Positions 17,330 through 63,621 of a DNA stretch of 64,000 nt are shown in pieces. This DNA is from Azolla caroliniana (Eukaryota > Plantae > Polypodiophyta): the NCBI GenBank assembly GCA_043228905.1, contig JBHGNT010000013.1, positions 12,028,001 through 12,092,000 on the forward strand, read 5' to 3'. Position 1 is the stretch's first letter. Every line of letters begins with the position of its first letter. Position numbers and translations under genes: made by a program. Below the pieces are notes generated by a model. The model saw only the letters and a list, made by a program, of their open reading frames with translations, was not told where the DNA came from and ran no database searches.

Positions 17330-17440
17330 TGTCATGAACACATGACCATTATGGCGTCACACGGATTGAACCTCGAACCTTGTAATCCATACTTGAAAAC
17401 CTCAACCATTAAGATAGCTTATTGTTATATGAAACAATAA

Positions 17441-17486
<46 letters not shown>

Positions 17487-17505
17487 TTGTAACCATCCTG
17501 AAACC

Positions 17506-18670
17506 ATGGCTGCCATTAACTCAGAAGAATATCTCACCCATGTTGCAGAAATGGAGAACCTTAAATCCAAGTTCGCATCTCTTGAAGTAGAGAATCAACG
17601 TCTACTTGGGGATCTACAAAAGGTTACTATAGAGAAGCAACAACAACAAGAGGAGTTCACGCGACGAGTGCAACAGTTAGAGTTGACAATCGTAGTGTTA
17701 CAACAACAAAGGGTTGAAGGTAAGGGACTTATCAAGGAGCCCAAAATTAGCCTCCTAGCTAAATTTGATGGGTCGAGGGCGCATTTCCGAGGTTTCTTGA
17801 ATCAAGTACGGTTGGTGATTCAAATGCATTCCGTGCGTTATCCAACAGATGCATCACGAGTCGGGCTAGTGGGCACCTTATTGACTGCCATAGCGTTGTC
17901 GTGGTTTGCTCCATTGCTAGAGACCAATTCTCCTCTACTGAATAATTTTGAGGAATTTATCAAGGAATTTAAGGCTTATTTCGGAGATACTGATGGGGCG
18001 AGAACAACTATCAACAAGATTCGTACACTTCGTCAAGGTGATCAACCAGCTTCGACATATGCTGCCAATTTCCGTCTCATCGCAAGCGATATTCCTTGGG
18101 ATGAACAAGCCCTAATGGAGCAATTCCGTTCAGGCCTTCGTAGTGATGTCAACGACTTACTTCTTACCTTCCCCGAGGATCCAAGGTCACTTACAAAAGC
18201 TATTAGTCGAGCAATACGGTGTGATAATCGCCTTTTTGAGCATCGATGTGAGCGACAACAACAAATAACAAGATCAAGATTCACACCAACTTATGCATCA
18301 GTAACGGCGCAATCATCCCCAAGGCAAATGTATAGCCCTGCTCCAACTCCAAGGCAAACACGTAGTCCAGTCCCTATGGATAGTCCTGCACCCATGGAGA
18401 TCGATATGACTCAACGACAAGGACCGTTGTCAGACGAAGAGAAGCAACGTCGTTGAGCAAACCATCTATGCTTATATTCCGGAGGTCCAGGACATATAGC
18501 CATTCATTGCTCCCGTAGGCCGAGACGTCAGGTAAATCAAATTCACTATGACAATGAAAATGAGTCCAACATTTTAGAAGCAGTTAGTGAATCTAATATT
18601 ATGAATAATCCACCCTTGTCCAATAAATTTGAAGTCCTAAGCCAATTAGAAGAGGAGTCAAACGAATAAG
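17506..18670 (+). pseudogene. Gag of the Tcn1-like element (premature stop at 18454, degraded zinc knuckle)
   Basis: MAAINSEE...EPKISLLAKFDGSRAHFRGFLNQ...LRQG....YAANFR; coiled-coil-like N-terminus. Confidence 0.9.
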
Positions 18671-18695
18671 TCCGGCCAAAATAGGAGCCATTTGG

Positions 18696-21600: not shown

Positions 21601-22324
21601 ATACAACAACACGGTCCACTATTCTACCAAAGTTACACCTTTCTTTGCCTACATTGGCAACCACCCTCGATGGTGTCTATTGGATCTTCCAGAGGTGTCA
21701 CGAAACCCTAGTGCGGCGCATCACCTCCACTGACTACAACAAATCCAGTTCGAGTTATCGTCACATCTTCAGAAAGCGCAAGCACACCATAAGACCAATG
21801 CCGATCGATATCGTCTTAAGTCTCCGTTTAAGGTTGGTGACCGTGTATGGTTGCTTTGTTGTCACATCAAGACTACCCGACCGTGTGCTAAGCTTGACTA
21901 TCAACGCTTAGGTCCTTTTGTCATCACGGCGCAGATTAATGATGCAACATTTCGTCTTAACCTTCCTGCACATATGCGGCTTCACCCTGTCTTTCATAGC
22001 TCTCTTTTGGAACCTTGCAGCACCTCTTTAATTCCTAATCATGTCGTGCCACCACCGCCTTCTGTACAACTTGTGGACGGCCCCGAATACGAGGTAGCTG
22101 TTATTCTCGATTCTAAGATTGTGTGCAATAAGCTTTATTATCTAGTTGATTGGCTTGGCTATCCTCCAAGTGATTGCACTTGGGAACCCATTGATAATGT
22201 TTGTAATGTTGAAGCTCTGGTCAACGACTTCCATCGTCACTATCCAAACAAGCCCGGCCCAACAATGTTAACGCCGACTTCCACTTGGCGTTCTCGAAGG
22301 AGGGATAGTGTCATGAACACATGA
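18696..22324 (+). pseudogene. Pol (PR-RT-RH-INT-chromodomain) of the Tcn1-like element, broken by stops and frameshifts
   Basis: ORF fragments 18696-19142, 19218-19856, 19863-20228, 20348-21265 and 21851-22324 carry the canonical motifs. Confidence 0.95.
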
Positions 22325-22741
22325 CCACTATGGCGTCACTCGAACTTGAACCTCGAACCTTGTAATCCATACTTGAAAACCTCAACCATTAAGATAGCTT
22401 ATTGTTATATAAACAATAAAAGCTACTTCTTGTATTACATTACTTATTGTAAAACCTCTAGATTATTCTAGAATGTTCTAGAATGTCCTAGATCATTCTA
22501 GGTCTAGAACATTCTAGAAATCTCTAAGCTATTCTATAGGAACCTATAAATAAGGGCACACATGTATTCTCAAATCAATTCGAATCAACACCAATATTTA
22601 GCTCTCATTACATATCTTGTATCCATTCTCTTTCTTTCTCTATCTTATACATCCATTCTTCTCTTAGTATTTCGTTCCTTTCTTCTCGTGTTCTCTAATA
22701 TCCTTCTTCCATCACTCTATCTTTTATCCTTGGTTCTGACA
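22309..22741 (+). repeat. 3' LTR of the Tcn1-like element
   Basis: TGTCATGAAC...TCTGACA. The first ~115 bp match 17330-17443. Contains CTATAAATA. Confidence 0.93.
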
Positions 22742-30919: not shown

Positions 30920-31761
30920 TGTTGTGCCTTTCGGCGCTGGATCGTTGCGTGAGTCGGGTGAGAACCGTTGGGGTTTTGGATTAGGAGGAGGAAGAATATG
31001 AGACAAGTTTAGTTATGAATATGAATCGATTATAAGAAAGAGAGATAGAAACTTGTGAATCCCACAAGTATAGTTGTTTTAGTTTATCTTAATCGTAGTA
31101 ATAAATTTAAATAGTTTAGAATAGATTAAAGTAGATTGAGAAAAGAGATCAAAACTTGTGAATCCCACAAGTATTATATTAATCAATATTTAAGTAAGAA
31201 TATGAATGTAGATTGAAAGAGAAGGATATAGAAACCTCGTGAATCCCACGAATATAGTTTATTAATTGATGTTTTTAGAAATATATCCAATTTCCAAATA
31301 TTCCACACCCTATTACATTGTGCTCCCCATCCTTATATAGTGATGAGAGCGTCTTGGCAATCCATGCTTTTTCTCTAATTATGCCCTCCATGCTTTATCT
31401 ATAAATAGGCTATATGCTTTCTCTAACATGCTTTTTCTAACCTCATGCATTTTTATTGACTATAGTGTTCATGCATGCTAGATGTGCATGTGTAGCTTTT
31501 TTATATCATGCGTTTTTCTTCTAACTAAAGCTTTTTCCTAGAAAATATGCATGGAAAAAAAATGTCTATGTGGGATATCTTTTGTTTTTAAAATGTGTTA
31601 GTGTAATGGTAAGGCCTTTACATTATTAACATAGAGGTACAAGGTTCGAATCTTGCCCTCTGCATGTAATATATATTTTGATATTTCTTTCTTTTTCTTC
31701 ATATTTATTCAATTTGTTATTTTATACATTTTCCACGTAGTGTACAAAATACACTACGACA
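30920..31761 (-). mobile_element. Solo LTR (842 bp) of the Trp-primed Gypsy group, 4-bp TSD ACGT
   Basis: TGTTGTG...CTACGACA flanked by ACGT (30916-30919, 31762-31765). Removing it restores STTEAEYVVASDAVKEALWL of Copia C. GAACCGTTGGGGTTTTGGA resembles the reverse of the G LTR 3' end. Confidence 0.92.
31592..31680 (+). ncRNA. tRNA-like Pol III cassette inside the solo LTR
   Basis: A box TAGTGTAATGGTAAG at 31599 and B box GGTTCGAATCT at 31643 (44-nt spacing), followed by T-runs at about 31676-31696. Confidence 0.65.
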
Positions 31762-35588: not shown

Positions 35589-37832
35589 CTACTTCAATGA
35601 TAATATCCTTCTCTCTTTTTCTTCATACCAAAGGTTAAATATATCCCTCCAACAAATGTTTGATGTATCTTGAGCATTCAAGGATATAAACATCAAAGCA
35701 TCTAAAGTTTCCAAAGATAAACCGTTTCTAATATCATTTTTTATGATATTTTGACGTGAAAAACCTCGTTCACATGTTGTTGTACTAATAGGAATAGTCA
35801 TGCATAGTTGCCACAATTGCATAATACCCGGAAATAATTGCCACCAAGATTGTGCTTTGCAACAAATATCCCATACATCATGCATTCCTCTTCCTTTAGC
35901 AATTCTAACAAGCATACCAACAAAATCTTCTCGTTCATTGAAGCATCTTTTCATGTCAACAATTTGCCTATCAATATTAAAATTCCCAATAAGTTTGTGC
36001 AACCATTCCGTTGTCTTTTTCTCTCTTTCATTTTCCTCAATGGGATATGAAGACGGATTAAACAACTTTACAACATTGAAAAATGTAACATCCGGGAGAT
36101 GATTGTTTAAGGCATCAATAACATGTTGGACAAAGTCCTTTCCAATGCTAATGCATTCATCCAAACTACCATTTTCCACATTACCATGAAACATATTCAA
36201 GTTGAAATCACTATCTTCATTCTCACTATCAAGACCACTTACTAGTCTTCTTGATCGTTTTGTTACCTCTTTTGGGTTTGGAATTGGTATAAACTTCAAT
36301 GGATGTGAATGAGTAAGATTATCACATCCAATATATGTGAGTATGCCATCTTTCACATGATCTAGAAAGTTTGCAAGAAACATAGACCCGGTACCAAATG
36401 TTTCACAAGATAAATATCGTCTTCGAAGTTTCTCATGGATGATATCCAAGTGAACACCAAGCATAATTACATCCATTAATTCCCTTTGGAACTGCTCATT
36501 TAATTTATTTAATTCCACAAGAATATCTGCCAATAGGTGTAACATAAATTGCACTTGGAATATAGTAGCATACTTGTACCATTTTTTCTCATGTTTTTCC
36601 AATTGTTCTAAAATTGCATGCATAAGTGTAACTAGTCTCTCCATTACTTGGCCTCGAGATAACCATCTTATGGAGTGAATTTTAAGCACCTTCAAATCAC
36701 CCTTACCATGTTGTTTCATTATTTCTTTTCGCTCCTTGTGTCTATTAGTTGACTTTCCCAACCAAGAGTATACTTTATTTGCAAATGCATCAAGGAAGCT
36801 AAACACATGTGCATGAGACATTATATATGCATCTTTTATGGCAAGTGCTTCACGATGTGCAATGCAATGCACTCCCAAAATATTAGGCATCATGGATTGA
36901 AACTTAGAAATTGCTCCATTGTTCTTACCTACCATAGATGATGCCCCATCACTTGCAAAAGCCACTAGTTTTTTTAAATCTAAATTGCTCTCCAAAATGA
37001 ATTCATTGATAGTATTATAGATACCTTCAACTTTCCCATTTTCCACCGGAAGAAGATGCACAAATTTACATTGTGGCTCCCCTTTGCCACCTTCACTTAA
37101 GTACAAGACATAGATAATGAGGTGTTTTTCCAATGTCCGATCGGTGCTTTCATCAATCAAGATGGAGAAAAATGGACTACCACGAATTTCATCATACAAG
37201 AGTTTTCTTGTGTGGTTCTTAATAGCCATTAAGAATTCTCTTGCAGATTTAGCATTAGCATAAGCACCATATTCATTTGAGGCAGGGGCATTTGGAGTAC
37301 CAAGTTCTCTTTGTAACTGACATTGTTTTACATATTTCTCTAACGGAATATCATTACAAGCATAAAAATGAACCAACTTCATGCATAAGATTATCCTCTC
37401 ATTTTCTAAATGCATGATTTCTGAAATTTTGTCATCCATTGAGCCTTTCACATTTGCATTTTCCTTTTGTATCTTTACATGATACATAGCACTTGCTATT
37501 ACATGGTCGGATGACTTAGAATGCTCATTCAATGATGACAATTGCATGCTAAGCGATCCACCATATGTAAAAACATTATTCCTTCTCGCATCTTCACACC
37601 ACATGCATTTTATTTTTTCATCACCTAATAAGGACTTTGTCAAATATGCCCATGGGTGGAGCAAAGTCCACTGGTTTCTCCACTTTCTTTTTGTTTTATT
37701 AGAAGACGTTGACACATTTACATTTGTGACTACCTCTTCATCATTATTTGGAGTATCATAAAGATGTGCTTTCTTGCAAAACACACTCTTAATAGAAGGT
37801 TGGTGTGATCTATGTTTTTTGGGGCAGGACAT
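35589..37832 (-). CDS. hAT transposase (ZNF862-like), 747 aa from MSCPKK, uninterrupted ORF
   Basis: TTF-like zinc finger (W..HPW...CMWC...H....H), D1 in SILIDESTD, D2 in FASDGAS, HCIAH, RWLS, E in CERGFS, and a C-terminal dimerisation region. Confidence 0.92.
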   Translation of the reverse strand: MSCPKKHRSHQPSIKSVFCKKAHLYDTPNNDEEVVTNVNVSTSSNKTKRKWRNQWTLLHPWAYLTKSLLGDEKIKCMWCEDARRNNVFTYGGSLSMQLSSLNEHSKSSDHVIASAMYHVKIQKENANVKGSMDDKISEIMHLENERIILCMKLVHFYACNDIPLEKYVKQCQLQRELGTPNAPASNEYGAYANAKSAREFLMAIKNHTRKLLYDEIRGSPFFSILIDESTDRTLEKHLIIYVLYLSEGGKGEPQCKFVHLLPVENGKVEGIYNTINEFILESNLDLKKLVAFASDGASSMVGKNNGAISKFQSMMPNILGVHCIAHREALAIKDAYIMSHAHVFSFLDAFANKVYSWLGKSTNRHKERKEIMKQHGKGDLKVLKIHSIRWLSRGQVMERLVTLMHAILEQLEKHEKKWYKYATIFQVQFMLHLLADILVELNKLNEQFQRELMDVIMLGVHLDIIHEKLRRRYLSCETFGTGSMFLANFLDHVKDGILTYIGCDNLTHSHPLKFIPIPNPKEVTKRSRRLVSGLDSENEDSDFNLNMFHGNVENGSLDECISIGKDFVQHVIDALNNHLPDVTFFNVVKLFNPSSYPIEENEREKKTTEWLHKLIGNFNIDRQIVDMKRCFNEREDFVGMLVRIAKGRGMHDVWDICCKAQSWWQLFPGIMQLWQLCMTIPISTTTCERGFSRQNIIKNDIRNGLSLETLDALMFISLNAQDTSNICWRDIFNLWYEEKERRILSLK

Positions 37833-38202
37833 GTTGAGAATCAAGCTCAACTTGGTCTAGTGTGTGAACTCACCTTGAGAGTGAAGAGACACCTCAACGG
37901 TCAAGAGTCACCATTATGTCACCACTTTGTATTCTAGCATTTAGTATGAGTCATAGAATCATATTCTATGACACATAACTTATGAGCTTTCACATTCCCC
38001 ATGCTCCATGAGCCTTGTAGTTAATGAAGAGAGAGGGTGACTACATAAAGCACCCTCCTCCCACCTTGTACAATGTTGTGTCTTTCTCCTTTGTCAATAT
38101 ACCTTTACTCTGCGTATTCCTTGTCTCTCTCTCTCTCTCTCATACACACACATAACTCATAACACTTCCGCTTCACAAGAATCAATCTCTTGATTCTTTT
38201 CA
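37832..38202 (+). repeat. 5' LTR of Copia E
   Basis: TGTTGAGA...CTTTTCA; its 3' part is repeated at 42762-42960. Confidence 0.95.
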
Positions 38203-46386: not shown

Positions 46387-47337
46387 ATACCAAGGTCTTT
46401 TGTGCCCACAGGATATCTAAACACATGCTTCACTGCATTCCAGTGCGATCGGCCGGGATTATGCATAAATCTATTGACGACTCCAACGGTGTGAGCGATG
46501 TCAGGCCGTGTCGCGAGCATCACGTACATTAGGGAGCCAACTGCCAGTGCATACGGTACCGACTTCATAATTTCCCGCTCCGGACCAGATATCGAGCAGT
46601 CTTGTTGAGATAACCGAGTATGAATAGGGAGTGGGGTAGAGGCAGATTTTGCCGATTGCATATTGAAGCGTTCGAGGACACGTTGTCGTGAAGAAAACCG
46701 TCCCTTAGCGCAATCAGTGCATAGAGCGCGTGAACCAGCTCTTCACGCGTGCGCGCCCTTTAATGTATATAATAGGGAATTAGGTACATAGATATATCCT
46801 GGGTAGTTAGATTCGGTAGGTAGGAAGTAAATGAGGGAGACGGCTCCCTTCTTGAAGCCATAAAAGAGAGGGAGACGCGGAGGGAAGGGGATCGCGCATT
46901 GAGGAGGACGAAGTGCTGTCAGACTGTAACCGAACGCTTCTCCTCTGTTTGTTCTCTATTGCTCTTCTCTGCAGGTTTTCGAGAGGCTCGCGCTGCTTCG
47001 AGGAACACCCGTGTGCTTCCGGCAGCACCTCCATCCTATCCCCTTTCGTGCGCAGACGAACAGGCATCGGCATCTGTTCGCCGGCCTGTTCGGTTGTAAC
47101 CGCTCGCGTTCTCTGTTGTTTTTGTGTCATTTGTTAATATACAAACATTCGTGTCTCTCTGTCTCTGTGTCCGTTCGTGTCTTCTGCGTTGCCGGGCCGT
47201 GTCCCTGTGTTTCTTTGCTCATACGTAACCGGTCGTCTCTCTCTTTCTTGTTCCCCTTCTATCACCTGCTCTTCGGTTCAAGACCCCGGTGGTCCCACCT
47301 CGTTTCTCCACGCACGCGCGTAGTAACGCGACATATT

Positions 47338-47354
47338 TGGTGAACCCGACGTGA
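47338..47354 (+). promoter_or_regulatory. Primer-binding site complementary to the tRNA-Trp 3' end (element F)
   Basis: The reverse complement is TCACGTCGGGTTCACCA, matching the 3' end of plant cytosolic tRNA-Trp as I recall it. Confidence 0.85.
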
Positions 47355-49328
47355 ACAAGGCGGCAGAGGAGCAGAAGATGAAGGGGTCGGATCTTGCAGA
47401 GGCCATGGCTTCGGCCGTGGACCGGATAGTGAGCGCGCGTGAGGGCACCGGCGCCCTTGACAAGGCTATTGAGGCGATCGTCGGTATGATCGGCCGGTTC
47501 AGTGGAAAGGATGCCATGAGTTATTTGGCGTCCTACCGGGCGGAGATGTTGATGAGGGATATTCCGGAAGAGAGGCGTCTTGCCGGATTCCCTCGAGTGG
47601 CGATGCCGGGCATCCATGCGGAGGTGCTCGAGGTCCGGGCGAAGAGCCGGACTTGGGAGGAGTTCGAAGGACGGCTCCTGGAGAAATACGGGCTGGATGA
47701 TGCGCTTCGACTTTCGAAGCGGGGCTTCATGGAGTGGGTGGAGTCCCCTGACAAAGGAAGAAATGCGTCGGTATTCCTCCGGGAGTTTGAGGAACGCTTT
47801 GCGCGCCTTTCGACGCTCGATTGGACCGTTCTGGACACAAGTCGTGTTCTATTGTTTGTCAAATCGATTGACGCACGGGATCGGGAGCAAGTGGGCTCCT
47901 TAATGGAAACCGAAGACGGGTTGACGACCGACTGGACCGCGGTAAAAAGAGTCTGTGGCCGTTTTGACAAACGGTGGGAGTGGGCTGATACAGGGGTGAC
48001 CGGGGCGGGTCCTGTCGCAGCAAAGAAGCTCGAACCAATACCGCAGGCGCGAAGGGAAGAGACCCGGGAGTGGCTCGAAACCGGTTCGGCTTCGACCAGC
48101 GTGGTCAGAGGCTCGTCCGGGGGAACAACTTTGGAGGAGTTGACACGGGCGGTAAAGGATCTCCAGATCGCCCAGGCTCGGAGGGAAGGTGGCGAACAGA
48201 CTCGTGACCGACGGCCTCCAGCAGGAAATAGGTGCATGTGGTGCGACGAGGTCGGCCACATTTGGAAAGACTGCGGGGACTTTGCGGAGGCTTTGAGAAG
48301 CCGGGTAGTGTACCTGTGGGAAGGTCGGGTGCACGCCAGTGATACCCGAAGGGCCCTGAACTGAAACGACGGGCAAGGAGAAATGAAAAGGCTGATGGAA
48401 GAGGCGGCGGCTCGGCACGCGGAGACCGTCCACTACTCAGCGTCATCCGGTATTCGGGTCGGAGGCAGCGAGGCCCGGAAGGAGAGCAAAGCCGGGTTTA
48501 GGTAAACGGGTAGGTAAAACCGGAGGGGCCGGACCCTCACAGAGATACGAAACCCGATTCGGTCCAAAATGGAACGAGGCCGGTGAGTCCAATGTCCGGG
48601 ATAACCACAAGAAGGGCGGATACCGTTTGGGCACGGAGATCGAAAGGACCACGGACCTACGAAAGGTCCTGGAAGAACGAATCCTCGACAGCAAGGTGGA
48701 ACTGTCGTTGCGAGAGGTGCTCGGAATCGCCAAGAAGGAGTTCCACGACTCCATCATAGACTTGGTGAAGAGGAAGAGGTTGTCGACGGAGGCAGAACCG
48801 GAAAGGCCGGTGGAGGTGCGGACGACGCACATAGAGGACATGGCGCTGGAAGACGAGTGGGCGGAGAGCCACAATTCGAGGCCACACTGGGCCCGAGCGA
48901 CCACGGAAACCCCGATGAAGATCGGAGATGTTCAGGAACCGGTGGTGGCGCTGGTGGACCACGGTTCGGAAATAAACCTGATGTCCATGGACTTCTACAA
49001 GAAGGGGAAATGGCCGATCTACACCAAGCACGGGTGGAAGATACGGGCAGTGACGCGCGCCACCGAGGAACTACACGGGGCCTGCCCGAACGTGCGAGTC
49101 AAGATCGGCGACGTCGAGATAGACCAGCACTTCTTTGTGCAGGAGACGTCCTCGCACCCGGTCATACTGGGAGAACTGTACATTACGGCAGCACGGATGG
49201 AGACCAAGGTGCTGGACAACGGGTCGGCTTACGCGAGGGTCAAGAGTCAGGACGGGCGTCATTCGGTCCAATTCCTGACGGTGCGAAACTGCGAATCCCT
49301 CGGTGGCGAGAACCGAGAGGATTTTTAG
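47351..49328 (+). pseudogene. Element F Gag (CMWCDEVGHIWKDC) and protease (LVDHGSEINLM), interrupted
   Basis: ORFs 47351-48364 and 48627-49328, homologous to element G. Confidence 0.9.
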
Positions 49329-49511
49329 AGAGGGCTGTCAAGGCGTGGGGCCACGAAACCGAAGAAACCTTGTACCATAAGTAGGAAGTTTTGTTTCTCC
49401 GACAACGGAGGGTGTACGATAGTCGGTGTCGTTGGCCGAGAAAAGACAAGGGCGGAAGAGCGACTCCGGGCGTGCGGAGTTCTCGGGCCCAACGAGGAAA
49501 TCAACGGAGCC

Positions 49512-51767
49512 GTGGAGGCGGTCTCCTTCGACGATACCTTGGGAATACTGCGAGAGGTGGTCGGAGAGGGCCTTAAAGAGGACTGGACGATACCGGTTTG
49601 TTCAGAGGAGATGTACGAAGTCATCGCGGACTTCAGTCGAGAGCTCGAGTCGGATCAGACGGCCTGGGTTAACACGAAGTACAAGACTGTGGACCGGAAG
49701 GTAAGACCAGTCGCGGCACCCTTACTAGAGGGCAACGAGTTGCGAATCAAGGGGGTCGCGTCGGACCCCAGTTTACGAGATCCGGCCTGCATAGGACACA
49801 CCTTCACCGACAGAACGCTACGGGAGCTCAAAATCGGTGGGGGCGGTTTCCTACTGCCGGCGGAAGAAGACCGGTTTCGGAGAATGCTCGGAAGGCACGG
49901 GAAAGCCTTCGCATTCTCACCGGGAGAGATCGGGTGCGTAGACCCGACAGTCGTGCAGCCGATGGTGATATTCACGGTACCGCATGTGCCGTGGAATCTC
50001 AAACCAATTCCGGTACCGAGAGCTCACATCCCGGAGCTGATGGAGTTGTTGAGGCAGAAAGTCGATATGGGCATCCTCGAACCGTCGAGTGCCCCGTACT
50101 CGAACCGGTGGTTTACCATACCGAACAAGAACGGGACGTTGCGCTTCATTCAAGACCTGCAACCGGTCAACAGAGTGACCATTCGGAACGCAGGGATCGG
50201 ACCAACGATAGAGGAGTTCGCGGAGGCCTTCGCCGGAAGGTCGATCTACTCGATCGGTGATCTGTACTTGGGGGCTTACGTAACAACCGAGGGGGGGAGC
50301 ACTCCGGCGCTTAACGATTTTAACGAGAGCAAGTACGACGGGGAGTGGCTGCAGATTGGAGGATTCTTAAGGACGATGACATCGGACGCGTCATGGACAA
50401 AGAACGAGGCCAACCGGATTCGGAAGAAAGCATACCGATTCTTTCTCCGGGGCGGATACTTGTGGAAGCACCCGAAGAGGAGAAACGGCATCCCGCTCCG
50501 AGTAGTGGCGATGAAGGAGGAACAGGAGGGGTTGCTGAAGACCTACCATGACAGCCCTTGGGCTGGACACCGTGGGACGTGGGCCACGTTCGAGAAACTA
50601 AAGGGGAAGTACTGGTGGCCGGGACTGTACCGGGACGTGCATCGGTTCGTGACAACTTGTGAGAGCTGTCAGATGCACTCCATAGTCCGACATCGGGACG
50701 AGCTTCACCCTACATACCCTCCGGCCATCCATTTCAAATGGATGGTAGATTTGGTGATGATGCCGATGGGCGTAGGGCAGATGCGATATCTGGTGCTGGC
50801 CCGGGAGGACCTGACGAACCAGGTGGAAGGCCGAGCCCTGCAGAACAAAATGACCGCGGCCGTGTGTCGGTTCCTGATCGAGGACGTGATATGCCGGTAC
50901 GGGTGCGTCGGGAAGATCGTGGCTGACCGCGGGGAGTTGGACGCCGAAGAGGCCGAGGAGCTGTTCGACCGGTTAGGGGTCAAGCTCTCGCTCACCACAA
51001 CGTACAATCCGGAGGCGAACGGGAAGGTGGAGCGTGGACACGGACCGATCGTCAAAGCGCTAGTCCGGGCATGCGAAGGCCAGGTCGGGAACTGGCCACG
51101 GCTGTTACCTTATGCCTTGTGGGCGGACCAGACAACGCACAGTTCGGTAACCGGGTTCATGCCGTCAGAGCTCATGTTCGGACAGAAGCCGATCATGCCG
51201 ATGGAACGGACGATCTCCTCTTGGGCGACAGTAGACTGGAGAGATGAGATGAGTCGGGAAGAACTGCTAGCGACGCGTATACGGCAGCTCGAGCGGAGGC
51301 CAGAGGATGTGGAACGAGCGGCGGAGAGACTTCGGACGGCGAGGATGAAGAACAAAGCCCGGTTCGACCGAACGCACCGGCTCCGACCAAAGAAAATCGA
51401 GGAAGGCGACTGGGTGCTAGTCTATGACAGCAGCCTTGACAACCAACACCGAGCAACACGGAAGTTTGCAAAGCGGTGGTTCGGGCCTTACGTGGTAACG
51501 AGCGCCAACGACAACGGGACGTATCACCTGGCGGAACTCGACAGTACGAGGATGGCGATACCGGTAGCAGGGAAGTGGATCAAAGCGTTCAAGAAGCGCC
51601 ACGATGGCGAACCGGATCTAAGAGGCCTGGACAGCGACGACGAACAATCCGAAACGGAGGACGAATCGATGGACGAAGAACCGGAACTCAGACCGGTTTT
51701 CTCCAACCAGAGCGCAATTTTGACGCATACCGGTGGATGCGCGGTTAGGTGGGGGTGGATGTCGTGA
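49512..51767 (+). CDS. Element F truncated-RT::integrase in-frame fusion ORF (751 aa)
   Basis: The RT N-part stops at GRSIYSIGDLY (~50267) and joins the pre-integrase linker. HHCC, D-D-E (WMVDL, VADRGE, VERGH) and GPY are intact. Confidence 0.85.
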   Translation: MEAVSFDDTLGILREVVGEGLKEDWTIPVCSEEMYEVIADFSRELESDQTAWVNTKYKTVDRKVRPVAAPLLEGNELRIKGVASDPSLRDPACIGHTFTDRTLRELKIGGGGFLLPAEEDRFRRMLGRHGKAFAFSPGEIGCVDPTVVQPMVIFTVPHVPWNLKPIPVPRAHIPELMELLRQKVDMGILEPSSAPYSNRWFTIPNKNGTLRFIQDLQPVNRVTIRNAGIGPTIEEFAEAFAGRSIYSIGDLYLGAYVTTEGGSTPALNDFNESKYDGEWLQIGGFLRTMTSDASWTKNEANRIRKKAYRFFLRGGYLWKHPKRRNGIPLRVVAMKEEQEGLLKTYHDSPWAGHRGTWATFEKLKGKYWWPGLYRDVHRFVTTCESCQMHSIVRHRDELHPTYPPAIHFKWMVDLVMMPMGVGQMRYLVLAREDLTNQVEGRALQNKMTAAVCRFLIEDVICRYGCVGKIVADRGELDAEEAEELFDRLGVKLSLTTTYNPEANGKVERGHGPIVKALVRACEGQVGNWPRLLPYALWADQTTHSSVTGFMPSELMFGQKPIMPMERTISSWATVDWRDEMSREELLATRIRQLERRPEDVERAAERLRTARMKNKARFDRTHRLRPKKIEEGDWVLVYDSSLDNQHRATRKFAKRWFGPYVVTSANDNGTYHLAELDSTRMAIPVAGKWIKAFKKRHDGEPDLRGLDSDDEQSETEDESMDEEPELRPVFSNQSAILTHTGGCAVRWGWMS

Positions 51768-52413
51768 AGAAAACCGTCCCTTAGCGCAATCGGTGCATAG
51801 AGTGCGTGAACCGGCTCTTCATGCGTGCGCGCCCTTTAATGTATATAATAGGGAATTCGGTACATAGATATATCCTGGGTAGTTAGATTCGGTAGGTAGG
51901 AAGTAAATGAGGGAGACGGCTCCCTTCTTGAAGCCATAAAAGAGAGGGAGACGCGGAGGGAAGGGGATCGCGCATTGAGGAGGACGAAGTGTTGTCGGAC
52001 CGTAACCGAACGTTTCTCCTCTGTTTGTTCTCTATTGCTCTTCTCTGCAGGTTTTCAGGAGGCTCACGCTGCTTCGAGGAACGCCCGTGTGCTTCCAGCA
52101 GCACCTCCATCCTATCCCCTTTCGTGCGCAGACGAACAGGCATCGACATCTGTTCGCTGGCCTGTTCGGTTGTAACCGCTCGTGTGCTCTGTTGTTTTTG
52201 TGTCATTTGTTAATATACAAACATTCGTGTCTCTCTGTCTCTGTGTCCATTCGTGTCTTCTGCGTTGTCGGGCCGTGTCCCTGTGTTTCTTTGCTCATAC
52301 GTAACCGGTCATATCTCTCTTTCTTGTTCCCCTTCTATCACCTGCTCTTCGGTTCAAGACCCCGGTGGTCCCACCTTGTTTCTCCACACACGCGCATAGT
52401 AACGCGACAACGT

Positions 52414-54710: not shown

Positions 54711-54872
54711 TGTCGTGAAGATTTTCGGCAATAGTGTGAAAATCCATAAAACGTACAAAATCGAGTATAAATCACATAATACAATAATTGTGAAGATAAC
54801 ATTTTAAATAAATTTAATATCTAAGTACAAAATGATGGAGGTTTCGAATGCACTTTATTACACGAGAAACGG

Positions 54873-54999
54873 TGTCGCGTTGTTACGCGCGTGCGTGGAG
54901 AAAGGCGGGACCACGGGAGTCTTGGACTAGGGAGTGATGGAGCGTAGGAAGTCGTGCTTCACCGTTTCCGGGGCATCCCAGAAGCACACCGGAAGCAAC

Positions 55000-55048
<49 letters not shown>

Positions 55049-55743
55049 ACACCGACTCACGCACACACACTCACACACACGCACACACACTCACACACGC
55101 ACACACACACACACACACGCACACACACTCACACACTCACACACTCACACACACACACACAGGCAAACCTGACTCACAACCTTAAGTACAGGAAATGCAG
55201 GAAAGGGGAAGCACCCGACACCAACGAAGACGCGAATATACACAGACAGACGCAAACGTATATATATATATATATATATATAAGAAGAATACATCCTCGG
55301 CGTCAAGCCGGACCGAGGTAGGTTACAGTAGTCGTTAGCTGCCAAGCCGCCGGTCGGGGAGCTCACGGGCTCGTTGCGCCGAGCGGGGTCTTGCGCAGGA
55401 GATGAGCTGAAGCAAACCCTAAGCGAATACGAAGGGGGGAAGAAGAAGAAGAAGAAGAAGAAGAAACTAACTCTAAACCTAACGGTATACCCTCTAATGT
55501 AAAATGGCAACCCTTCACAAAGGGCGTTCCCTTCCTTTTATAGAACAAGGACAGGGATGCGTTACAATGTGGGATAAACCCCGACTTACATGGGACCGTC
55601 TGTCCTGACTTGACTACTCTTCGGCGCCATAAAGGCGCCCTCGTTATTCACACTAAATGTACATGGGTGTGTACACACGCTGCACCCCGCCGATGTAGCC
55701 AATGTTTCCCGGTTTCCGCCTTTGGCCGAAATTCTTCACGACA
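54873..55743 (-). mobile_element. Solo LTR (871 bp) of the F/G group inside the 5' LTR of G, TSD ACGG
   Basis: Absent from the 3' LTR of G. ACGG at 54869-54872 and 55744-55747. The reverse complement starts TGTCGTGAAGAATTTCGGC and ends like the F LTR. Contains (GA)n, (CA)n, (TA)n and (GAA)n tracts. Confidence 0.95.
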
Positions 55744-56215
55744 ACGGACAACTAAATGTCAAGATATGAGGGTGTAAAGTTTGTGAAAGGAAAAGAGAAA
55801 ATTGTGAGATATCCCACATAGGCACGACAAATACGACTCTCATCATATATAAGGTGGAGCAAAAGATATTATCTTTGTGTCTATGTGTGGAGCATAGAGA
55901 GTTCAAGGTAACTTGAACTAAGAGTGGAGGTGGGCTAGCTACTTGTAAAGGGTTTTGGCCAACCAAAACCGGACCGGCGATGGAGCCGGTGATCCGACGA
56001 CATCCGGCGCCAGTGAGACACCGGCATCCGACGGCAATCCGGCGACGACGAGGCGGCGGCATCCGGCACCAATAACCGACAGCATCCGACGAGGCACCGG
56101 TAACCAACGGCATCCGGCGGCAGCACCGGTATCCGGCGACGGCATCCGACGAACCGGTGTCCGGCGACTAGATAAATAAATATATAAATATATATACATA
56201 TACACATATACAAGG

Positions 56216-56287
56216 AGGGCAAGTAAGGATTCGAACCTTGCACCTCCAAGTTAAAAATCAATTGGCTTACCATTAAGCCATGTTATT
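56216..56287 (-). ncRNA. tRNA-like Pol III cassette in the G 5' LTR
   Basis: The minus strand reads TGGCTTAATGGTAAGCCAATTGATTTTTAACTTGGAGGTGCAAGGTTCGAATCCTTAC. It shows an A box with a D-stem (GCTT/AAGC), B box GGTTCGAATCC 43 nt later and a T-stem (AAGG/CCTT). The acceptor stem is degenerate. Confidence 0.7.
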
Positions 56288-56841
56288 TAGTTGAAATTAT
56301 ATTTCTATCATTGTACTTTTACATGTAAATTCTTATACATGAGAGCTAAAATGAGTGACATGGTTATCATGCACCACATGTAATACATAAGCACCAAATG
56401 GCAAACATGCAATTTATGCATGTCTTGTACCCTCACATGCATCATATGCATGAGAGTATCTATAAAAGAAGGAAGGGGGAGGAGAAAAAACACGTTTTTT
56501 TTTATGAAAATTAAGAGGAAGAAATTCGTTATGAAATTGATCGTGTAACTTGTTTCTTAAATCTAAAGTTAAAAGTTCAATCAATCTCTCTCAATCGTGT
56601 AATCTCAACTTCTCTCTTTCCCAATCTATCTTAAGTACTTTCTCGCTAAAGCTTGTACCGACTTTGAATCCTTCCGGTCCAGAACCCCGGCGGTTCCGCC
56701 TCACGATCCACGCGTAGTGACGGATCTTCACGACATAATTAAGTGGTGAACCCGATGTGAAAGAGGCGGTAGGAAGGATCAAGTCGAGATTAATACTTGT
56801 AGATGGCGTCCTGAAGAAACCAAGCAGGAGAGCTCGAAAGG

Positions 56842-59001
56842 ATGATGTTAATCGTCGAGCAAATGATGAGATCTCGGGACAACGACGCGAGCGTGGAGAA
56901 GGCTGTCGATCGTGTCGTAGAGCTCGAGGGCCAATTCGATGGAAGGAACGTTACGAAGTTCCTTGATGCATATAGAAGGGAGATGAATCAGAGGGACGTG
57001 TCCGAGGCACGTCAAATCGCAAGCTTCAAGAGAGTTGTCACCAGCAACATCCAAAGATGCGTCATCGAGCTTCAAGAAGGTAAGACAACATGGTCCGAGT
57101 TCGAGAAAACAATACTAGCGGAGTTCGTGACTGAAGACTCCACGAGAATGACTCGACATGCCCTGATGAAGTGGATAGAGAAGAAGAATAAGAAGATGAG
57201 CGTCTCGAGGGTGTACGACGAATTCGACCAGATGTTTAGTCGTCTCCCCAATACGGACCAAGTGTTGCTTGAAGAGGACAAGACTTTGTACTTCTTGAAG
57301 GCCGTGGACATAAAGGATAGACGGGAGTTGGGGACTCTTCTCGAAGATGATACCCAAGCAAATGGGCTCGTAGCGGACAGGATCGCGGTGAAGCGGGCAT
57401 GCAATAGGCTCGACAAGCGTCGCCAATGGGTTGATGACACCGACTTGACGGGATCGACTACCACGGAGAAAGCAAGACCGCCGAAAGTAGCTGAGCCGCC
57501 AAGACAAAGTAACGTGGAAGAAAAGAAGATTGATGACGACATCATTGAAGAGCTAGCGAAGAAGTTCGAGAAGGTCACGCTAGCCAACATGAATCGTCGG
57601 GGGCCTAAAGGAAAAGAACCCTTTAGATGCGTGTGGTGCGATAGCATGGACCACATGGGAAGGAATTGTGCGAGCCTTCGAGAGGCGATTCGACAAAATA
57701 TCATATACATAGAGGACAACATGATCTGCTCAAGCGAGACTAGAAGACCCCTACGGGTGAATTTCGGAAGAGGAGGAATGAAGAAATCTATGGAGGATGC
57801 CGATGCGACTCATGTGGATGCGATGCACTATGCTGCGTCGGCCGGAATAAGAGTCGGGAAAGACAAGACTGAAGCTGCTAGAGCGGGAGCAAAGTTTTGG
57901 ACTTCTGTTCTCGAATATGAGAAGAAGGGAAAAGTCACATCGAACGAGGTAGAGCTTGCGGACCGAAGCGTGCAAAGCATAACCAAGTGGTCGGATCCGG
58001 TGGACGACAACACCATACTCACAGAGGTGATGTGCGACAACCACGAGGTGTTCATCGAAGAAAAGAGAAAGAGAATAGAAGAGCAAGGCCCATCTAAAAG
58101 ACATGAAACAAGGAACGCGAAAAAGAAGGACGATGCGGAGACGAGTCGACCTTTACAATCGGAGGAACGAGAATCAAGCCGAAAAGGGGAGCCGAGCATA
58201 TGAGTTGAAGAAACGGTGCGGCTTGTGAAGGTTGGTGTCGAAGACCCCGCTCGGAGGACTAGGACTATACCTACCTATAAGCTAAGGTCGGACATAGAGC
58301 AGACAACGGACCTAAAGAAGATTCTCGAAGAACGAGTTCTTGATAGCCACGTAACTTTGTCCTTGAGGGAATTTCTTGGCATTACGAAGAAGGAGTTCCA
58401 TGACACGATCATGGACCTTGTAAAGAGAAAGAGACAACAATTGGACAAGGAAGAAGAGAAGCCGCAAAAAGCAAAAACGGATGCCATAATGATGGAAAGA
58501 GACGAAATCGACGAAGATATGGTGGACAGCCACTACACTCGACCTCATTGGGCACGAGCGACAACGGAGACGCCGGTGAAGATCGGGGAGAAGAAAGAGA
58601 CCGTGGTAACCTTGATCGACCACAGCTCGGAGATCAACCTCATGTCAACCGACTTCTACAAAAAAGGAAGATGGCCAATCAATACAAACCACGGATGGAA
58701 GATTCACGCGGCAACAAAGTCTACAGAGGATTTGTACGGAGCTTGTCCCAATGTCAAAGTCACGATCGGGGATGTGGAGATGGATCAACACTTCTTTGTA
58801 CAAGAATCGGCGTCGCATCCTGTCATCCTAGGGCAACCTTATATCACATCATCTCGGATGGAGACCAAAGTGTTCGATAATGGAGCAGCCTTCGCACGAA
58901 TAAAGAGTCTTGACAACCAAAGATCGGTCCAATTCCTAACGGTGCAAGCCAATCATGAAAGGAATCGAGATAGTCTCGGAGGCGAATCCTCGGATTTTTA
59001 G
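56842..59001 (+). pseudogene. Element G Gag-protease in one frame (single internal TGA at 58201)
   Basis: ORFs 56842-58203 and 58216-59001 share a frame. Motifs CVWCDSMDHMGRNC and LIDHSSEINLM. Confidence 0.9.
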
Positions 59002-59053
59002 AGCGGACTATTGAAGCATGGGGCACAAATAGTCCGAGCAATCACAAGACCCC
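58992..59053 (+). promoter_or_regulatory. Candidate -1 ribosomal frameshift element (GGATTTT + TAG + stem/pseudoknot)
   Basis: Heptamer at 58992-58998. Stem CGGACTATT/AATAGTCCG starts 5 nt later. The -1 frame is open into pol. The same heptamer and stop occur in F at 49319-49328. Confidence 0.75.
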
Positions 59054-62000
59054 ACAAGAAAGAAGAGTGCGTGGATTGCAAGGAGAAGCAACATGTGTCA
59101 CACCTAGTGGCGCATGTAAACTAGTACTACCCGACAAGAAGCACAAGCGCCGGATACAAGAATTCGAGAAGATGCTGAAAGAAGAAAACATAATAGAAGA
59201 AGGAGAGTTCGTGACTCATATTATGGAAGAAGCCTCATTTAACAACACCATCGGCGAAATCGAGGACGTCGTGGACTTGAGCTATCTTCACAACCAACGC
59301 GTGATTTCGGTTAACTCCGTCAACATGTACACTATCATCGATGAATACCGTTGTGGCATCTCGATGAAGGAAGCTGATATCAACACGAAATATAAAACGG
59401 TGGATAAGAAGATCAAGCCAATTGTGGTTCCGCTACCGGAAGATAGTTGGCAAAAGATGAAGGAAGTCGCTAACGATCCAAGCTTAAGAGATCCGAAGAA
59501 GATAGGTCATGTCTTCACCAAAGAGACGAAGGGGAAGCTTCGAGTTGGAAAGGAGGATTTCCTTCTCCCTGAAGAGGAGCGAATGTTTCGCGATATGCTT
59601 GAGAGACATGGGAAGGCTTTCGCATTCTTCCCACGAGAAATCGGATGCGCCGACCCAAAGGTTATAGAGCCCATGGTGATCTTCACAGTGCCTCATGTGC
59701 CTTGGAATTTGAAACCGATACCGGTTCCGAGAGCACACCTTCCGAAGCTGATCGAGCTCTTAAAGGAGAAGGTATGTATGGGAATTCTAGAACCGTCGAA
59801 TGCTCCTTATTCCAATAGGTGGTTCACGGTGCCGAAGAAGAATGGATCATTGCGATTCATCCAAGATCTTCAACCCGTCAACAAGGTGACAATTCGAAAT
59901 GCCGGAATCGGTCCGAGCATGGACGAATTTGCCGAAGCGTTTGCGGGCCGGTCCATCTACTCCATTGGCGATCTCTACTCCGGATATGACCAATTCCAAT
60001 TGGTGATCAACGGTCGGGACATTACAACCATGAGGACTCCGATCGGGCTTGTGCGGATGTGTACCTTACCCCAAGGCGCAACGAACTCGGTGGCTCATAT
60101 GGTGAATGCCATGAATAAAGTCTTGAAGGATTGCATTCCGGACATCACGATGCCATTCTTGGATGATATTCCGATAAAAGGATGTTCGGATGAGGAGAAA
60201 GATGAATCGAAAGATAAGGAAGGTTGTAGAAAGTTCGTTGCGGATCATATGAAAGATTGCGAGAAGGTGCTTCAAAGGCTCGAAGATGCGAATTTGACAT
60301 TTTTGGGAGAAAAATCCGCATTCGGGCAACTGGAGATCTTGGTGGTAGGTCACTTGTGTGGAGCATACGGCCGGAAGCCCTCGCCATCCAAAGTGAACGC
60401 AATCCAAGACATGAAAGAAGAATGCGAAAACCAAACGGAGGTTCGAAGGTTCCTTGGAGCGTGCGCATTTTATCATATATGGATTCCTCACTACGCTCAT
60501 GTTGTTGAACCATTATATGGACTACTAAAGAAAAGAATAAAGTTCGAATGGCTAGACGAGCACACAAAGGCAATGTGAAGATTAAAGAAACTGCTTCTTG
60601 AAGCTCCGGCACTAAGGAAGGCCGACTATGCCGAAGGGAAACCAATTTACGTGACCATAGATACGAGCCCAACCGGAATCGGGTGGGTCATCAATCAAGA
60701 AGGTGAAGATAATGCGCGATATGCCGTCCGGTTTGGAGCAAAGGTTCTCAACGAATGGCAACAAAGATATGCCCAAGTCAAGCGGGAACTTTGGGGTATT
60801 GTGTCCGCAGTGAAGACGGACAAAGATTACCTGATCGGGTCAGAAGTGATAATAGAGACAGATTGTCTCCCAATTCTCGGAATGGTCTCGGGATGTGCGA
60901 CCCCAGATCTTGCTATGCTAAGGTGGATCACCTGCATCAAGTCTTTAAACCCAGAGATCCGTCACATTGCAGGGAAGAAGAACGCCATGGCTGACATGCT
61001 GTCGAGGGCAAGATTTTCAAACGGAAGTAACATGGTTTCGGAAGATGAAGATGTCGCCCTCGACTTCTTCAAGATGGCTCGATTGTCGGCGGAAGACCGG
61101 GACACGCAAACCCTCCACGCCTTCAACGAGAACGAGTACGAAGGAGAGTGGTTACTCATCGGTAGATTCCTAAGAACATTGACGACAGATGCTTCGTTGA
61201 CAAAGGAGGAGGCCCTATGAATCCGAAAGAAAGCTTACCGATACTTCTTGAAGGGAGGATTCCTTTGGCGACATCCAAAAAGAAGGATAGGAATACCACG
61301 TCGAGTGGTGGTAAAGAAAGAAGAGCAAGAGACGCTGATGACCGAATTCCACGAGAGTGCTTGGGCAGGTCATAGAGGAACATGGGCGACGTTCGAAAAG
61401 TTGAAGGAGAAGTACTGGTGGCCAAGCATGTACAAAGATGTACTCCATTTCGTGTCCACATGCGAAACTTGCCAAGTATATTCAAATATACGTCATCGTG
61501 ATGAGTTAAAGCCGACATACCCACTCACCATACACTTCAAATGGATGGTGGATCTGGTCTCGATGCCAATGGGAGTGGGACAAATGAAGTACTTAGCGCT
61601 GGCAAGGGAAGACTTGACAAATCAAGTGGAAGGACGAGCCTTGACAAATAAGACGACTTCAGCCATTTGCAAATTTCTACTTGAAGATGTTGTTTGCCGA
61701 TATGGATGTGTAGGGAAGATAGTGGCCGACCGAGGGAGTTGGACGCGCACGAAGCGACGGAGCTCTTCGAAAGACTAGGCGTGAAGCTCTCCCTCACGAC
61801 TGCCTACAATCCGGAAGCAAATGGGAAGATCGAGCGAGGGCATGGACCTATCGTTAAAGCCATCGTACGGGCATGCAACGGTCGAGTCGGGAATTGGCCA
61901 CGACTATTACCCTATGCCTTGTGGGCCGATAAAACGACACATAGCTCGGTGATAGGGTATATGCCGACGGAGCTTATGTATGGACAAAAGCCGATTATGC

Positions 62001-62485
62001 CCATCGAAAGGACGATCGCCTCATGGGTAGCGATACCGTGGGAGAACGAGATGAGCCGAGAAGAGTTATTAGCGGCACGGATAAGGCAACTTGAAAGAAG
62101 ACCTGAAGATTTAGAAAAAGCGCGAAAGATGATGAAGGCAGCCCGAGTAAAGAACAAGGTTCGGTTCGACAACACGCATCAACTTCGTCCCAAGAAGATT
62201 GAAGAAGGGGATTGGGTTTTGGTTTACGACAACACTCTTGACAATCAACACAATACAACAAGGAAGTTCGCAAGAAGATGGTTTGGGCCGTATGTGGTGA
62301 CAAGTGCCAACGATAATGCCACATACCACCTTGCGGAACTAGACGGATCAAGGTTAGCCGTACCCATTGCGGGAAAAAGAGTAAAGATTTTCAAGAAAAG
62401 ACAAGACAAGGATCTTGACCCTGATTACCTCGACGATGAACATAACAGGGCGGATGAAAATGAAGACATGGAGGAATCTAATTGA
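58998..62485 (+). pseudogene. Element G RT-RNase H-integrase (few stops, one frameshift, no chromodomain)
   Basis: LPQG, FLDD, IDTSPTGIG, RELWG, ETDC, HHCC, DDE and GPY motifs in ORFs 59067-60578, 60651-61220, 61248-61778 and 61694-62485. Confidence 0.95.
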
Positions 62486-62557
62486 TCATCGTAGCCGAAA
62501 TCTCACTTTCTCTCTTCTTGGCACGTACCGGAGGACGTGCGGTTTGGTGGGGGTGGA

Positions 62558-63621
62558 TGTCATGAAGATTTTCGGCAATAGTGTGAAAATCCCATAAAAC
62601 GTACAAAATCGACTATAAATCACATAATACAATAATTGTGAAGATAACATTTTAAATAAATTTAATATCTAAGTACAAAATGATGGAGGTTTCGAATGCA
62701 ATTTATTACACGAGAAACGGACAACTAAATGTCAAGATATGAGGGTATAAAGTTTGTGAAAGGAAAAGAGAAAATTGTGAGATATCCCACATAGGCACGA
62801 CAAATACGGCTCTCATCATATATAAGGTGGAGCAAAAGATATTATCTTTATGTCTATGTGTGGAGCATAGAGAGTTCAAGGTAACTTGAACTAAGAGTGG
62901 AGGTGGGCTAGCTACTCGTAAAGGGTTTTGGCCAACCAAAACCGGACCGGCGATGGAGCCGGTGATCCGGCGGCATCCGACGCTAGTGAGACACCAGCAT
63001 CCGACGGCAATCCGGCACCGGTAACCGACGACATCCGGCGACTAGATAAATAAATGTATAAATATATATACATATATACATATACAAGGAGGGCAAGTAA
63101 GGATTCAAACCTTGTACCTCCAAGTTAAAAATCAATTGGCTTACCATTAAGCCATGCTATTTAGTTGAAATTATATTTCTATCATTGTACTTTTACATGT
63201 AAATTCTCATACATGAGAGCTAAAATGAGTGACATGGTTATCATGCACCACATGTAATACATAAGCGCCAAATGGCAAACATGCAATTTATGCATGTCTT
63301 GTACCCTCACATGCATCATATGCATGAGAGTATCTATAAAAGAAGGAAGGGGGAGGAGAAAAAACACGTTTTTTTTTATGAAAATTAAGAGGAAGAAATT
63401 CGTTATGAAATTGATCGTGTAACTTGTTTCTTAAATCTAAAGTTAAAAGTTCAATCAATCTCTCTCAATCGTGTAATCTCAACTTCTCTCTTTCCCAATC
63501 TATCTTAAGTACTTTCTCGCTAAAGCTTGCGCCAAAGCTTGTACCGACTTTGAATCCTTCCGGTTCAGAACCCCGACGGTTCCGCCTCACGATCCGTGCG
63601 TAGTGACGGATCTTCACGACA
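62558..63621 (+). repeat. 3' LTR of element G
   Basis: Direct repeat of 54711-54872 plus 55748-56735. Confidence 0.97.
63090..63161 (-). ncRNA. Second copy of the tRNA-like cassette (G 3' LTR), with the B box mutated to GGTTTGAATCC
   Basis: Same sequence as 56216-56287 with a CpG-type transition in the B box. Confidence 0.65.

Follow-up and report, generated by a model that had tools for sequence, protein, structure and literature searches.

An antisense tRNA-derived A/B-box cassette in the LTRs of Gypsy elements of Azolla caroliniana, a candidate TFIIIC-bound boundary

In the 64,000-nt stretch of Azolla caroliniana DNA analysed here (the window), a preliminary description placed a tRNA-like Pol III cassette in the U3 region of two divergent types of Gypsy LTR. 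Is this cassette a selected part of the LTR or the trace of a chance SINE or tRNA insertion, and does it act through an RNA or as DNA? The features concerned are as follows. Papers given by PMC number are cited from excerpts.

54711..56736, plus strand: 5' LTR of the Phygy-like element G, interrupted by a solo LTR that is nested at 54873-55743 (minus strand; ACGG duplication)
56216..56287, minus strand: tRNA-like cassette in U3 of the G 5' LTR, with the A box at 56270-56280 and the B box at 56228-56237, their starts 43 nt apart; internal T5 run
56460..56468, plus strand: TATA box of G; the A box lies 179 nt away, and the start site is putative
56744..56761, plus strand: primer-binding site (PBS) of G, the complement of the 3' terminus of tRNA-Trp(CCA) from this genome
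56815..62485, plus strand: gag-pol of G with RT, RNase H and integrase; several stops, no chromodomain found
62546..62557, plus strand: polypurine tract of G
62558..63621, plus strand: 3' LTR of G
63090..63161, minus strand: cassette in the G 3' LTR; A box 63144-63154 and, at 63102-63111, a B box whose invariant C has undergone a CpG C>T change
30920..31761, minus strand: solo LTR of the Phygy-like family S, ACGT/ACGT target duplication
31331..31340, minus strand: TATA box of S
31592..31663, plus strand: cassette in the solo LTR of S; A box 31599-31609, B box 31643-31652, 44 nt apart; T4 shortly downstream
17330..17445, plus strand: truncated 5' LTR of the Tcn1-like chromovirus C, cassette retained; A box 17406-17416, B box 17363-17372, both on the minus strand
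22309..22741, plus strand: 3' LTR of C; chromodomain upstream, TATA at 22544, self-priming complement 22578-22589
22332..22403, minus strand: second kind of antisense cassette, in U3 of the C 3' LTR; A box 22386-22396, B box 22343-22352
46684..52409, plus strand: Phygy-like element H, sister clade of G, with 650-bp LTRs without cassette; used for comparison

The A and B boxes are located in both G LTRs and in the solo LTR at a spacing of 43–44 nt, and the TATA boxes are found with the cassette facing away from the element transcript, in agreement with the preliminary description. Both LTR types named there were confirmed, but the distribution is wider, because a third unrelated element, the chromovirus C, has an antisense cassette of its own. 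In G, S and C, the cassette is antisense to the element, in U3 and upstream of the TATA box. The distance from the A box to the TATA box varies between families (about 113, 155–204, 179 and 206–271 nt), and a fixed nucleosome-length distance is thus ruled out. The G and S LTRs are alignable over the cassette only (93 nt, 74%). Among the fetched loci, the T5 run inside the cassette is confined to the G LTR pair of the window, and one further locus has T4. At 17330–17490, the 5' LTR of C is cut at about 116 bp and fused to the CT repeat normally located behind the self-priming site, and just the cassette-bearing portion is left. The tRNA position numbers used below are our assignment, anchored on the A and B boxes.

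The labels Phygy-like (G, S and H) and Tcn1-like (C, D and E) rest on the target site, the chromodomain status and the priming mode. According to the excerpt of Neumann (2019; PMC6317226), Phygy is a moss Ty3/gypsy clade marked by 4-bp NCGN targets and has no chromodomain. NCGN is present at 17 of 18 G 3' flanks. No chromodomain was found in G, S and H, and the internal region is filled by coding sequence, a Phygy trait. Family S is related to G and its PBS is identical in type (tRNA-Trp). The element C (17330–22741) is a chromovirus (Pfam Chromo, E = 2e-13) with a self-priming complement instead of a tRNA PBS, and these are marks of the Tcn1 clade (Novikova, 2010, PMC2864245; PMC6317226). Its RT is ~29% identical to the RTs of G's relatives. 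G, S, U and C carry gag-pol and are 5–8 kb in length; some shorter derivatives are also present. The excerpts of the two clade descriptions (PMC6317226, PMC2864245) do not mention a Pol III cassette in the LTR, whereas G, S and C have one. Trp-primed Phygy-like elements (window 54711–63621, L159–L238) are very abundant, with 5,527 exact PBS matches and CG-centred 4-mer targets, and they include several short, apparently non-autonomous groups. The window also contains a 755-aa frame (35589–37856, minus strand) with a C17orf113-type zinc finger and a hAT dimerisation domain, which corresponds to a hAT-like transposase. At 1150–1500, GA and CT microsatellite arms form a hairpin with sub-threshold matches to plant miRNA families; these are probably simple repeats.

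The paired boxes are not a chance occurrence: in 871 kb of fetched loci, 42 A+B matches were detected against 0–1 in five local shuffles, and about 3 of the 42 look like chance. The B-box pattern of G and S gave 2,373 matches in the genome and none in the control, and a generic A...B pattern gave 7,622 against 1. The first 30 places of each pattern along one contig were inspected. For the B-box pattern, 29 are inside LTRs. For the generic pattern, 28 are in Gypsy LTRs, either Phygy-like (G, S, T, U) or Tcn1-like (D, E), all antisense and some of them sister LTRs of one element, and the remaining two belong to a SINE-like family. These counts bear on the earlier proposal that the cassette be sought outside LTRs with target duplications of its own. 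Loci L255 and L258 (G000:C1:1649980 and 1890088) are SINE-like, with a tRNA-like head having perfect A and B boxes and a body of about 320 nt that is 80% identical; their flanks diverge right at the head, and they are not LTRs.

A sample of 170 LTRs was chosen by the far end (U5 or priming end) regardless of the cassette, and presence was scored at ≤3 mismatches. The cassette is antisense in 152 of them (26/30 G, 65/70 S and 61/70 Tcn1). Sense matches numbered 0, 1 and 0 for G, S and Tcn1, and the shuffled sequences gave 0. In 16 of the 18 negative LTRs, the family match ends before or inside the cassette; one of the other two has four mismatches, and one has a deleted middle. In a Tcn1 LTR at L345, deletion of the cassette middle has brought the A and B boxes close. 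The A–B spacing is 43–44 nt in 149 of the 152 (one 44 in S counted, two at 42 left out). The cassette therefore has the A and B boxes and the tRNA spacing of a type 2 Pol III promoter, with the box consensus drawn in part from excerpts of PMC4228148 and PMC10886601. Family U has a pair of antisense cassettes at a distance of 165 bp (L168:899–1996, LTR pair 99.9% identical), and their middles are unrelated. Similar doublets are located at G000:C1:8376349/8376519 and 9449937/9450097. A weak antisense A/B-like pair in the pol region of family C (L094:2744 and L096:4552) is probably due to chance.

The cassette is present in the 5' LTR window of just 10 of 80 elements anchored on the Trp PBS, and an 11th match is a nested Tcn1 LTR. 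The H clade is young, abundant and without cassette. In the RT tree, H is nested among cassette-bearing families as the sister of G (93/95), in a rough tree with distant outgroups, a bootstrap that is not settled and 24 of 39 Phygy RT rows. This position suggests that H probably lacks the cassette through loss. An early reading, that the closeness of H to G meant independent gains, was dropped because the rooted tree fits loss in H. No relatives were found in the viral contigs searched. One match was found in 56 kb of flanks, and enrichment that would indicate insertion beside other cassettes was not seen.

Trees were built from 149 distinct copies, with the 18 cassette-negative LTRs and three exact duplicates excluded. 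In every group, the boxes have fewer inherited changes per site than the middle and flanks have (p = 0.047, 0.004 and 0.0003). The earlier expectation that the boxes are more conserved than the neighbouring U3 is thus borne out. Six inherited changes occurred at the ten tRNA-invariant positions, and 40, mostly within the allowed letters, at the nine tRNA-variable box positions. Without CpG columns, the inherited and private changes are 13:39 in the boxes and 909:952 elsewhere (p = 6e-4 pooled). By group, the p values are 0.055 for G, 0.43 for S and 0.006 for Tcn1, so that this test is significant just in the pooled data and in Tcn1. Some box changes are shared: C56>T in five related S copies, and G19>A in seven.

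A second set of Tcn1 loci was chosen from metagenome contigs by protein alone. Among the 80 loci, 14 had too little downstream DNA; the cassette is antisense in 41 of the other 66 and sense in 0, with 1 match in shuffled sequence. The 56 loci with an LTR start represent 35 Tcn1 families (mean 59% amino-acid identity), and 28 of the 35 retain the cassette at ≤5 mismatches, compared with 3 of 200 shuffles. A clear cassette was not seen in the six most distant families (36–47%). The contigs are possibly from the same or a close host (best match 93%), so that families are added here, not necessarily hosts. In these protein-chosen copies, position 57 is A or G at 14:14, whereas C56 is still C in 24 of 28, though CpG decay strikes both equally. 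The invariant B-box C is required by yeast TFIIIC (excerpt of PMC4228148).

Identity among 16 Phygy and 27 Tcn1 representatives is 0.87–0.95 in the invariant columns and 0.40–0.46 in the middles and flanks. Between Phygy and Tcn1, the cassette middles are just 0.30 identical, which indicates no recent swap between the families. The RAGGT motif of the variable loop is kept in 15/16 Phygy and 17/27 Tcn1 representatives. No covariation was found in the D and T stems of the same representatives. The cassettes keep 1–2.9 of 7 acceptor pairs and 1.5–2.4 of 5 anticodon pairs, whereas real tRNAs have 7 and 5; the decay of these stems beside preserved boxes had already been noticed. A weak excess of pairing in the acceptor and anticodon columns of Tcn1 (p about 0.01, 26–43% paired) was attributed to relatedness. 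The cassette lacks the paired cloverleaf of a functional tRNA gene, and the proposed tRNA search of the window gave no tRNA with ARAGORN and no tRNA match with Rfam (RF00005) at E ≤ 10. Judged by its sequence, what is conserved is the promoter sequence read by TFIIIC (PMC4228148, excerpt), not the tRNA shape.

The cassette is very probably a selected Pol III-type element of some kind. Its frequency in antisense, the constancy of the invariant positions and the lack of stem covariation make a selected TFIIIC/Pol III DNA element the most likely reading, ahead of a tRNA or a SINE inserted by chance. The preference for a selected tRNA-derived LTR module over a chance SINE, expressed beforehand, is supported. 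A SINE should have a head, body and tail, its own target duplication and copies outside LTRs; such features were not found for the cassette, and nothing is common past the B box across families.

In S, T4 follows 20–37 nt after the B box in 63 of 65 copies. In G, the terminator is 13–323 nt away. The Tcn1 cassettes mostly end 11–63 nt from the LTR edge, and T4 lies within the LTR in just 3 of 60; this edge position and the rarity of T4 inside the LTR mean that no RNA is defined. Avoidance of internal T4 was not found (p = 0.43 and 0.19). An A4 deficit was seen in Tcn1 (0 vs 4.9, p = 0.003) as one of eight tests. Contigs from sequencing runs presumed to be of RNA span the G and C cassettes and give neither strand nor start, so that no conclusion is based on them. 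A defined RNA product of the cassette appears doubtful. The earlier suggestion of a small-RNA source keeps the S terminator in its favour and is weakened by the lack of a conserved fold, by the lack of a conserved terminator outside S and by the internal T4 result. A self-made primer was rejected, because the 3' end of the cassette does not match the PBS. In a comparison with 15 candidate donor tRNA types, some of them organellar, G agreed best with Arg(TCT), and the other families with various types.

Cassandra TRIMs, cited as a precedent in the preliminary description, are related in having a Pol III promoter in the LTRs, but the tRNA-derived Helenus elements are nearest. According to the excerpt of Kojima (2024; PMC10886601), the Helenus TRIMs/TRIMp3 resemble the cassette in tRNA-derived LTR sequence with conserved A and B boxes, no functional tRNA fold and no role as a primer. 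Helenus elements are non-autonomous, 311–1263 bp long and non-coding, whereas the elements bearing the cassette are 5–8 kb with gag-pol and a TATA box. In Helenus-1_SMo of Selaginella, the one plant family of Helenus, the tRNA part is in sense and is proposed as the element's own promoter, whereas the cassette is antisense in all 152 positive LTRs and thus cannot make the genomic RNA of the element. The G, S and C elements accordingly share the tRNA-derived A and B boxes in the LTR with Helenus, and neither the non-autonomous size below about 1.3 kb nor the sense orientation. In the same excerpt, it is argued that the autonomous partners of Helenus have to rely on Pol II promoters and do not have stretches of this kind in common with it; tRNA-like sequence is mentioned for 'not a few' Repbase LTRs, and the analysis is restricted to TRIMs. 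Some of the families seen here may be among those Repbase LTRs. Cassandra and Ajax (excerpts of PMC10886601 and PMC12786077) have an internal Pol III promoter with conserved motifs in the LTRs as well; unlike the cassette, they are 5S-derived (type 1) and non-autonomous, and the promoter drives their own transcript. The miRNA cassette of foamy virus (excerpt of PMC7693620) is also a Pol III unit that lies next to a Pol II promoter within the U3 region of an autonomous LTR element, and makes defined hairpin RNAs with shown function, whereas no conserved fold or terminator is seen here. The likeliest working analogues are yeast tDNA/ETC sites (PMC4228148) and mouse B2 SINE boundaries (PMC8136502), which in these excerpts are B-box sites acting on nearby Pol II or chromatin without a needed product. 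Those are host loci or SINEs, whereas the cassette is a built-in part of the LTR. The arrangement departs from Helenus in autonomy and orientation, and its boundary function is putative.

In the form proposed earlier, a protective role against silencing is not supported. Among the G copies, 3 of 21 have lost the B-box CpG to decay, compared with 9.8% at other CpGs; the loss affects 27 of 62 S copies and 16 of 61 Tcn1 copies. This CpG decays as fast as the others. The CG/CHH transition ratio of LTR pairs is 3.75 with the cassette (12 pairs) and 3.63 without it (30 pairs). This mutational footprint suggests no lasting protection from methylation and would fit at most a transient action. The CpG decay like that of other LTRs and the absence of the cassette from the largest Phygy clade argue against a general anti-silencing insulator.

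We presume that the cassette is a selected, tRNA-derived antisense A/B-box element that would serve as a TFIIIC-bound DNA boundary or roadblock before the Pol II promoter and not via an RNA product (probability roughly 0.45). TFIIIC, with or without TFIIIB and Pol III, would bind the cassette in active copies. The bound complex would position nucleosomes and stop Pol II read-through from neighbouring nested elements, and the 5' LTR could then fire from its own start site. In yeast, B-box complexes are roadblocks to incoming Pol II transcripts, barriers and nucleosome phasers (PMC4228148, in part). The benefit would be transient or confined to few copies, because host methylation still reaches most copies. 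Elements nest in each other throughout the window, and guarding of the start site would matter in the few progeny-producing copies, in agreement with selection acting along lineages and with the decay of inserted copies. The family U doublet with its different middles supports a product-independent action. Several points count against the boundary. The cassette is dispensable (10/80 Trp-PBS elements, and the H clade without it); a roadblock in the 3' LTR would also impede the element's own transcript; the distance from the A box to the TATA box is not fixed; and the fixed 43–44-nt spacing and the RAGGT motif would not be required under a pure TFIIIC model. With some reserve, we also consider that two deeply separate autonomous Gypsy lineages may each have domesticated a tRNA promoter as a backward TFIIIC boundary at the outer LTR edge, in convergent self-insulation within nested clusters, with >7,000 extra TFIIIC sites seeded.

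Other explanations have to be weighed against the boundary. If the cassette were a real Pol III gene, its antisense RNA could matter as a self-limiting antisense RNA, as an siRNA source or decoy, or as a tRNA-like RNA. This is rather unlikely: the scattered terminators of G, those outside the LTR in 57/60 Tcn1, the internal T4 runs that are not avoided and the failure to find a conserved fold or product sequence weigh against the S terminator, an A box kept as well as the B box, upstream DNA of 79–84% AT and CAA near +1 in 19/26 G and 52/61 Tcn1. The conserved RAGGT also corresponds to the m7G46 motif of tRNAs (excerpt of PMC10275265), and the foamy virus U3 cassette (PMC7693620, excerpt) is a precedent. 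TFIIIC/TFIIIB at the cassette might instead be an activator that opens chromatin or supplies TBP to the divergent Pol II TATA box. The layout is head-to-head with the TATA box 110–270 nt away in every family, and bidirectional Pol III/Pol II transcription was suggested for B2 boundaries (PMC8136502, in part). We consider an activator improbable, since this distance varies, the H clade is active with no cassette, and in yeast the usual effect of Pol III complexes on neighbouring Pol II promoters is inhibition (PMC4228148, in part).

A neutral relic of an old tRNA or SINE insertion, passed on with U3 or spread by LTR recombination between families, is largely refuted and has a small probability. 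G resembles tRNA-Arg(TCT) beyond the boxes, a SINE-like tRNA-headed family (L255, L258) is present in the genome, and a large clade has no cassette. However, the conservation tracks the promoter-invariant positions with the middle at the level of the flanks, and no SINE body, tail or duplication is shared between families. The sense copy in the genomic RNA might pair with a host tRNA, as a tRNA-fragment sponge or in a Ty3-like split primer-binding site. The element strand is complementary to the D- and T-arms of tRNA, such a duplex would suit the fixed spacing, and tRNA-Trp has the identical 43-nt spacing and RAGGT. Nevertheless, primer pairing is the least probable of these explanations, because self-priming Tcn1 families keep the cassette without needing a tRNA and the cassette is not fitted to tRNA-Trp. 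The longest tRNA-Trp match is 6–8 nt, Trp ranks 2nd to 15th of the 15 types by duplex energy, Trp has T at the positions where the cassettes retain G52 and A/G59, and the changes at G53, T54, T55 and G18 that wobble pairing would tolerate are not passed on along lineages.

In our literature search, to which subscription papers and Repbase entries were out of reach, no description of an antisense Pol III cassette in coding LTR elements was found, nor was a plant test of TFIIIC sites as boundaries. So far, small-RNA promoters in LTRs are known just in the sense orientation and from miniature elements that do not code. The retention of a Pol III promoter facing backward in full-length elements, and in two Gypsy lineages that are unrelated, suggests a second use, in which recruited Pol III machinery would govern the Pol II promoter of the element itself. 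For the question of TFIIIC boundaries in plants, material is available in thousands of natural copies, a cassette-free sister clade and single-base B-box variants. tRNA-pseudogene counts and TFIIIC maps of such genomes would be dominated by LTRs. tRNA genes are also present in long tandem arrays (G000:C1:25.11–25.15 Mb, C8:17.80–17.82 Mb, C5:17.99 Mb and C9:18.39 Mb), with Arg ACG/TCG pairs every 1.18 kb, Trp and Lys, and 506 Arg D-arm and 62 Trp pattern matches were found genome-wide.
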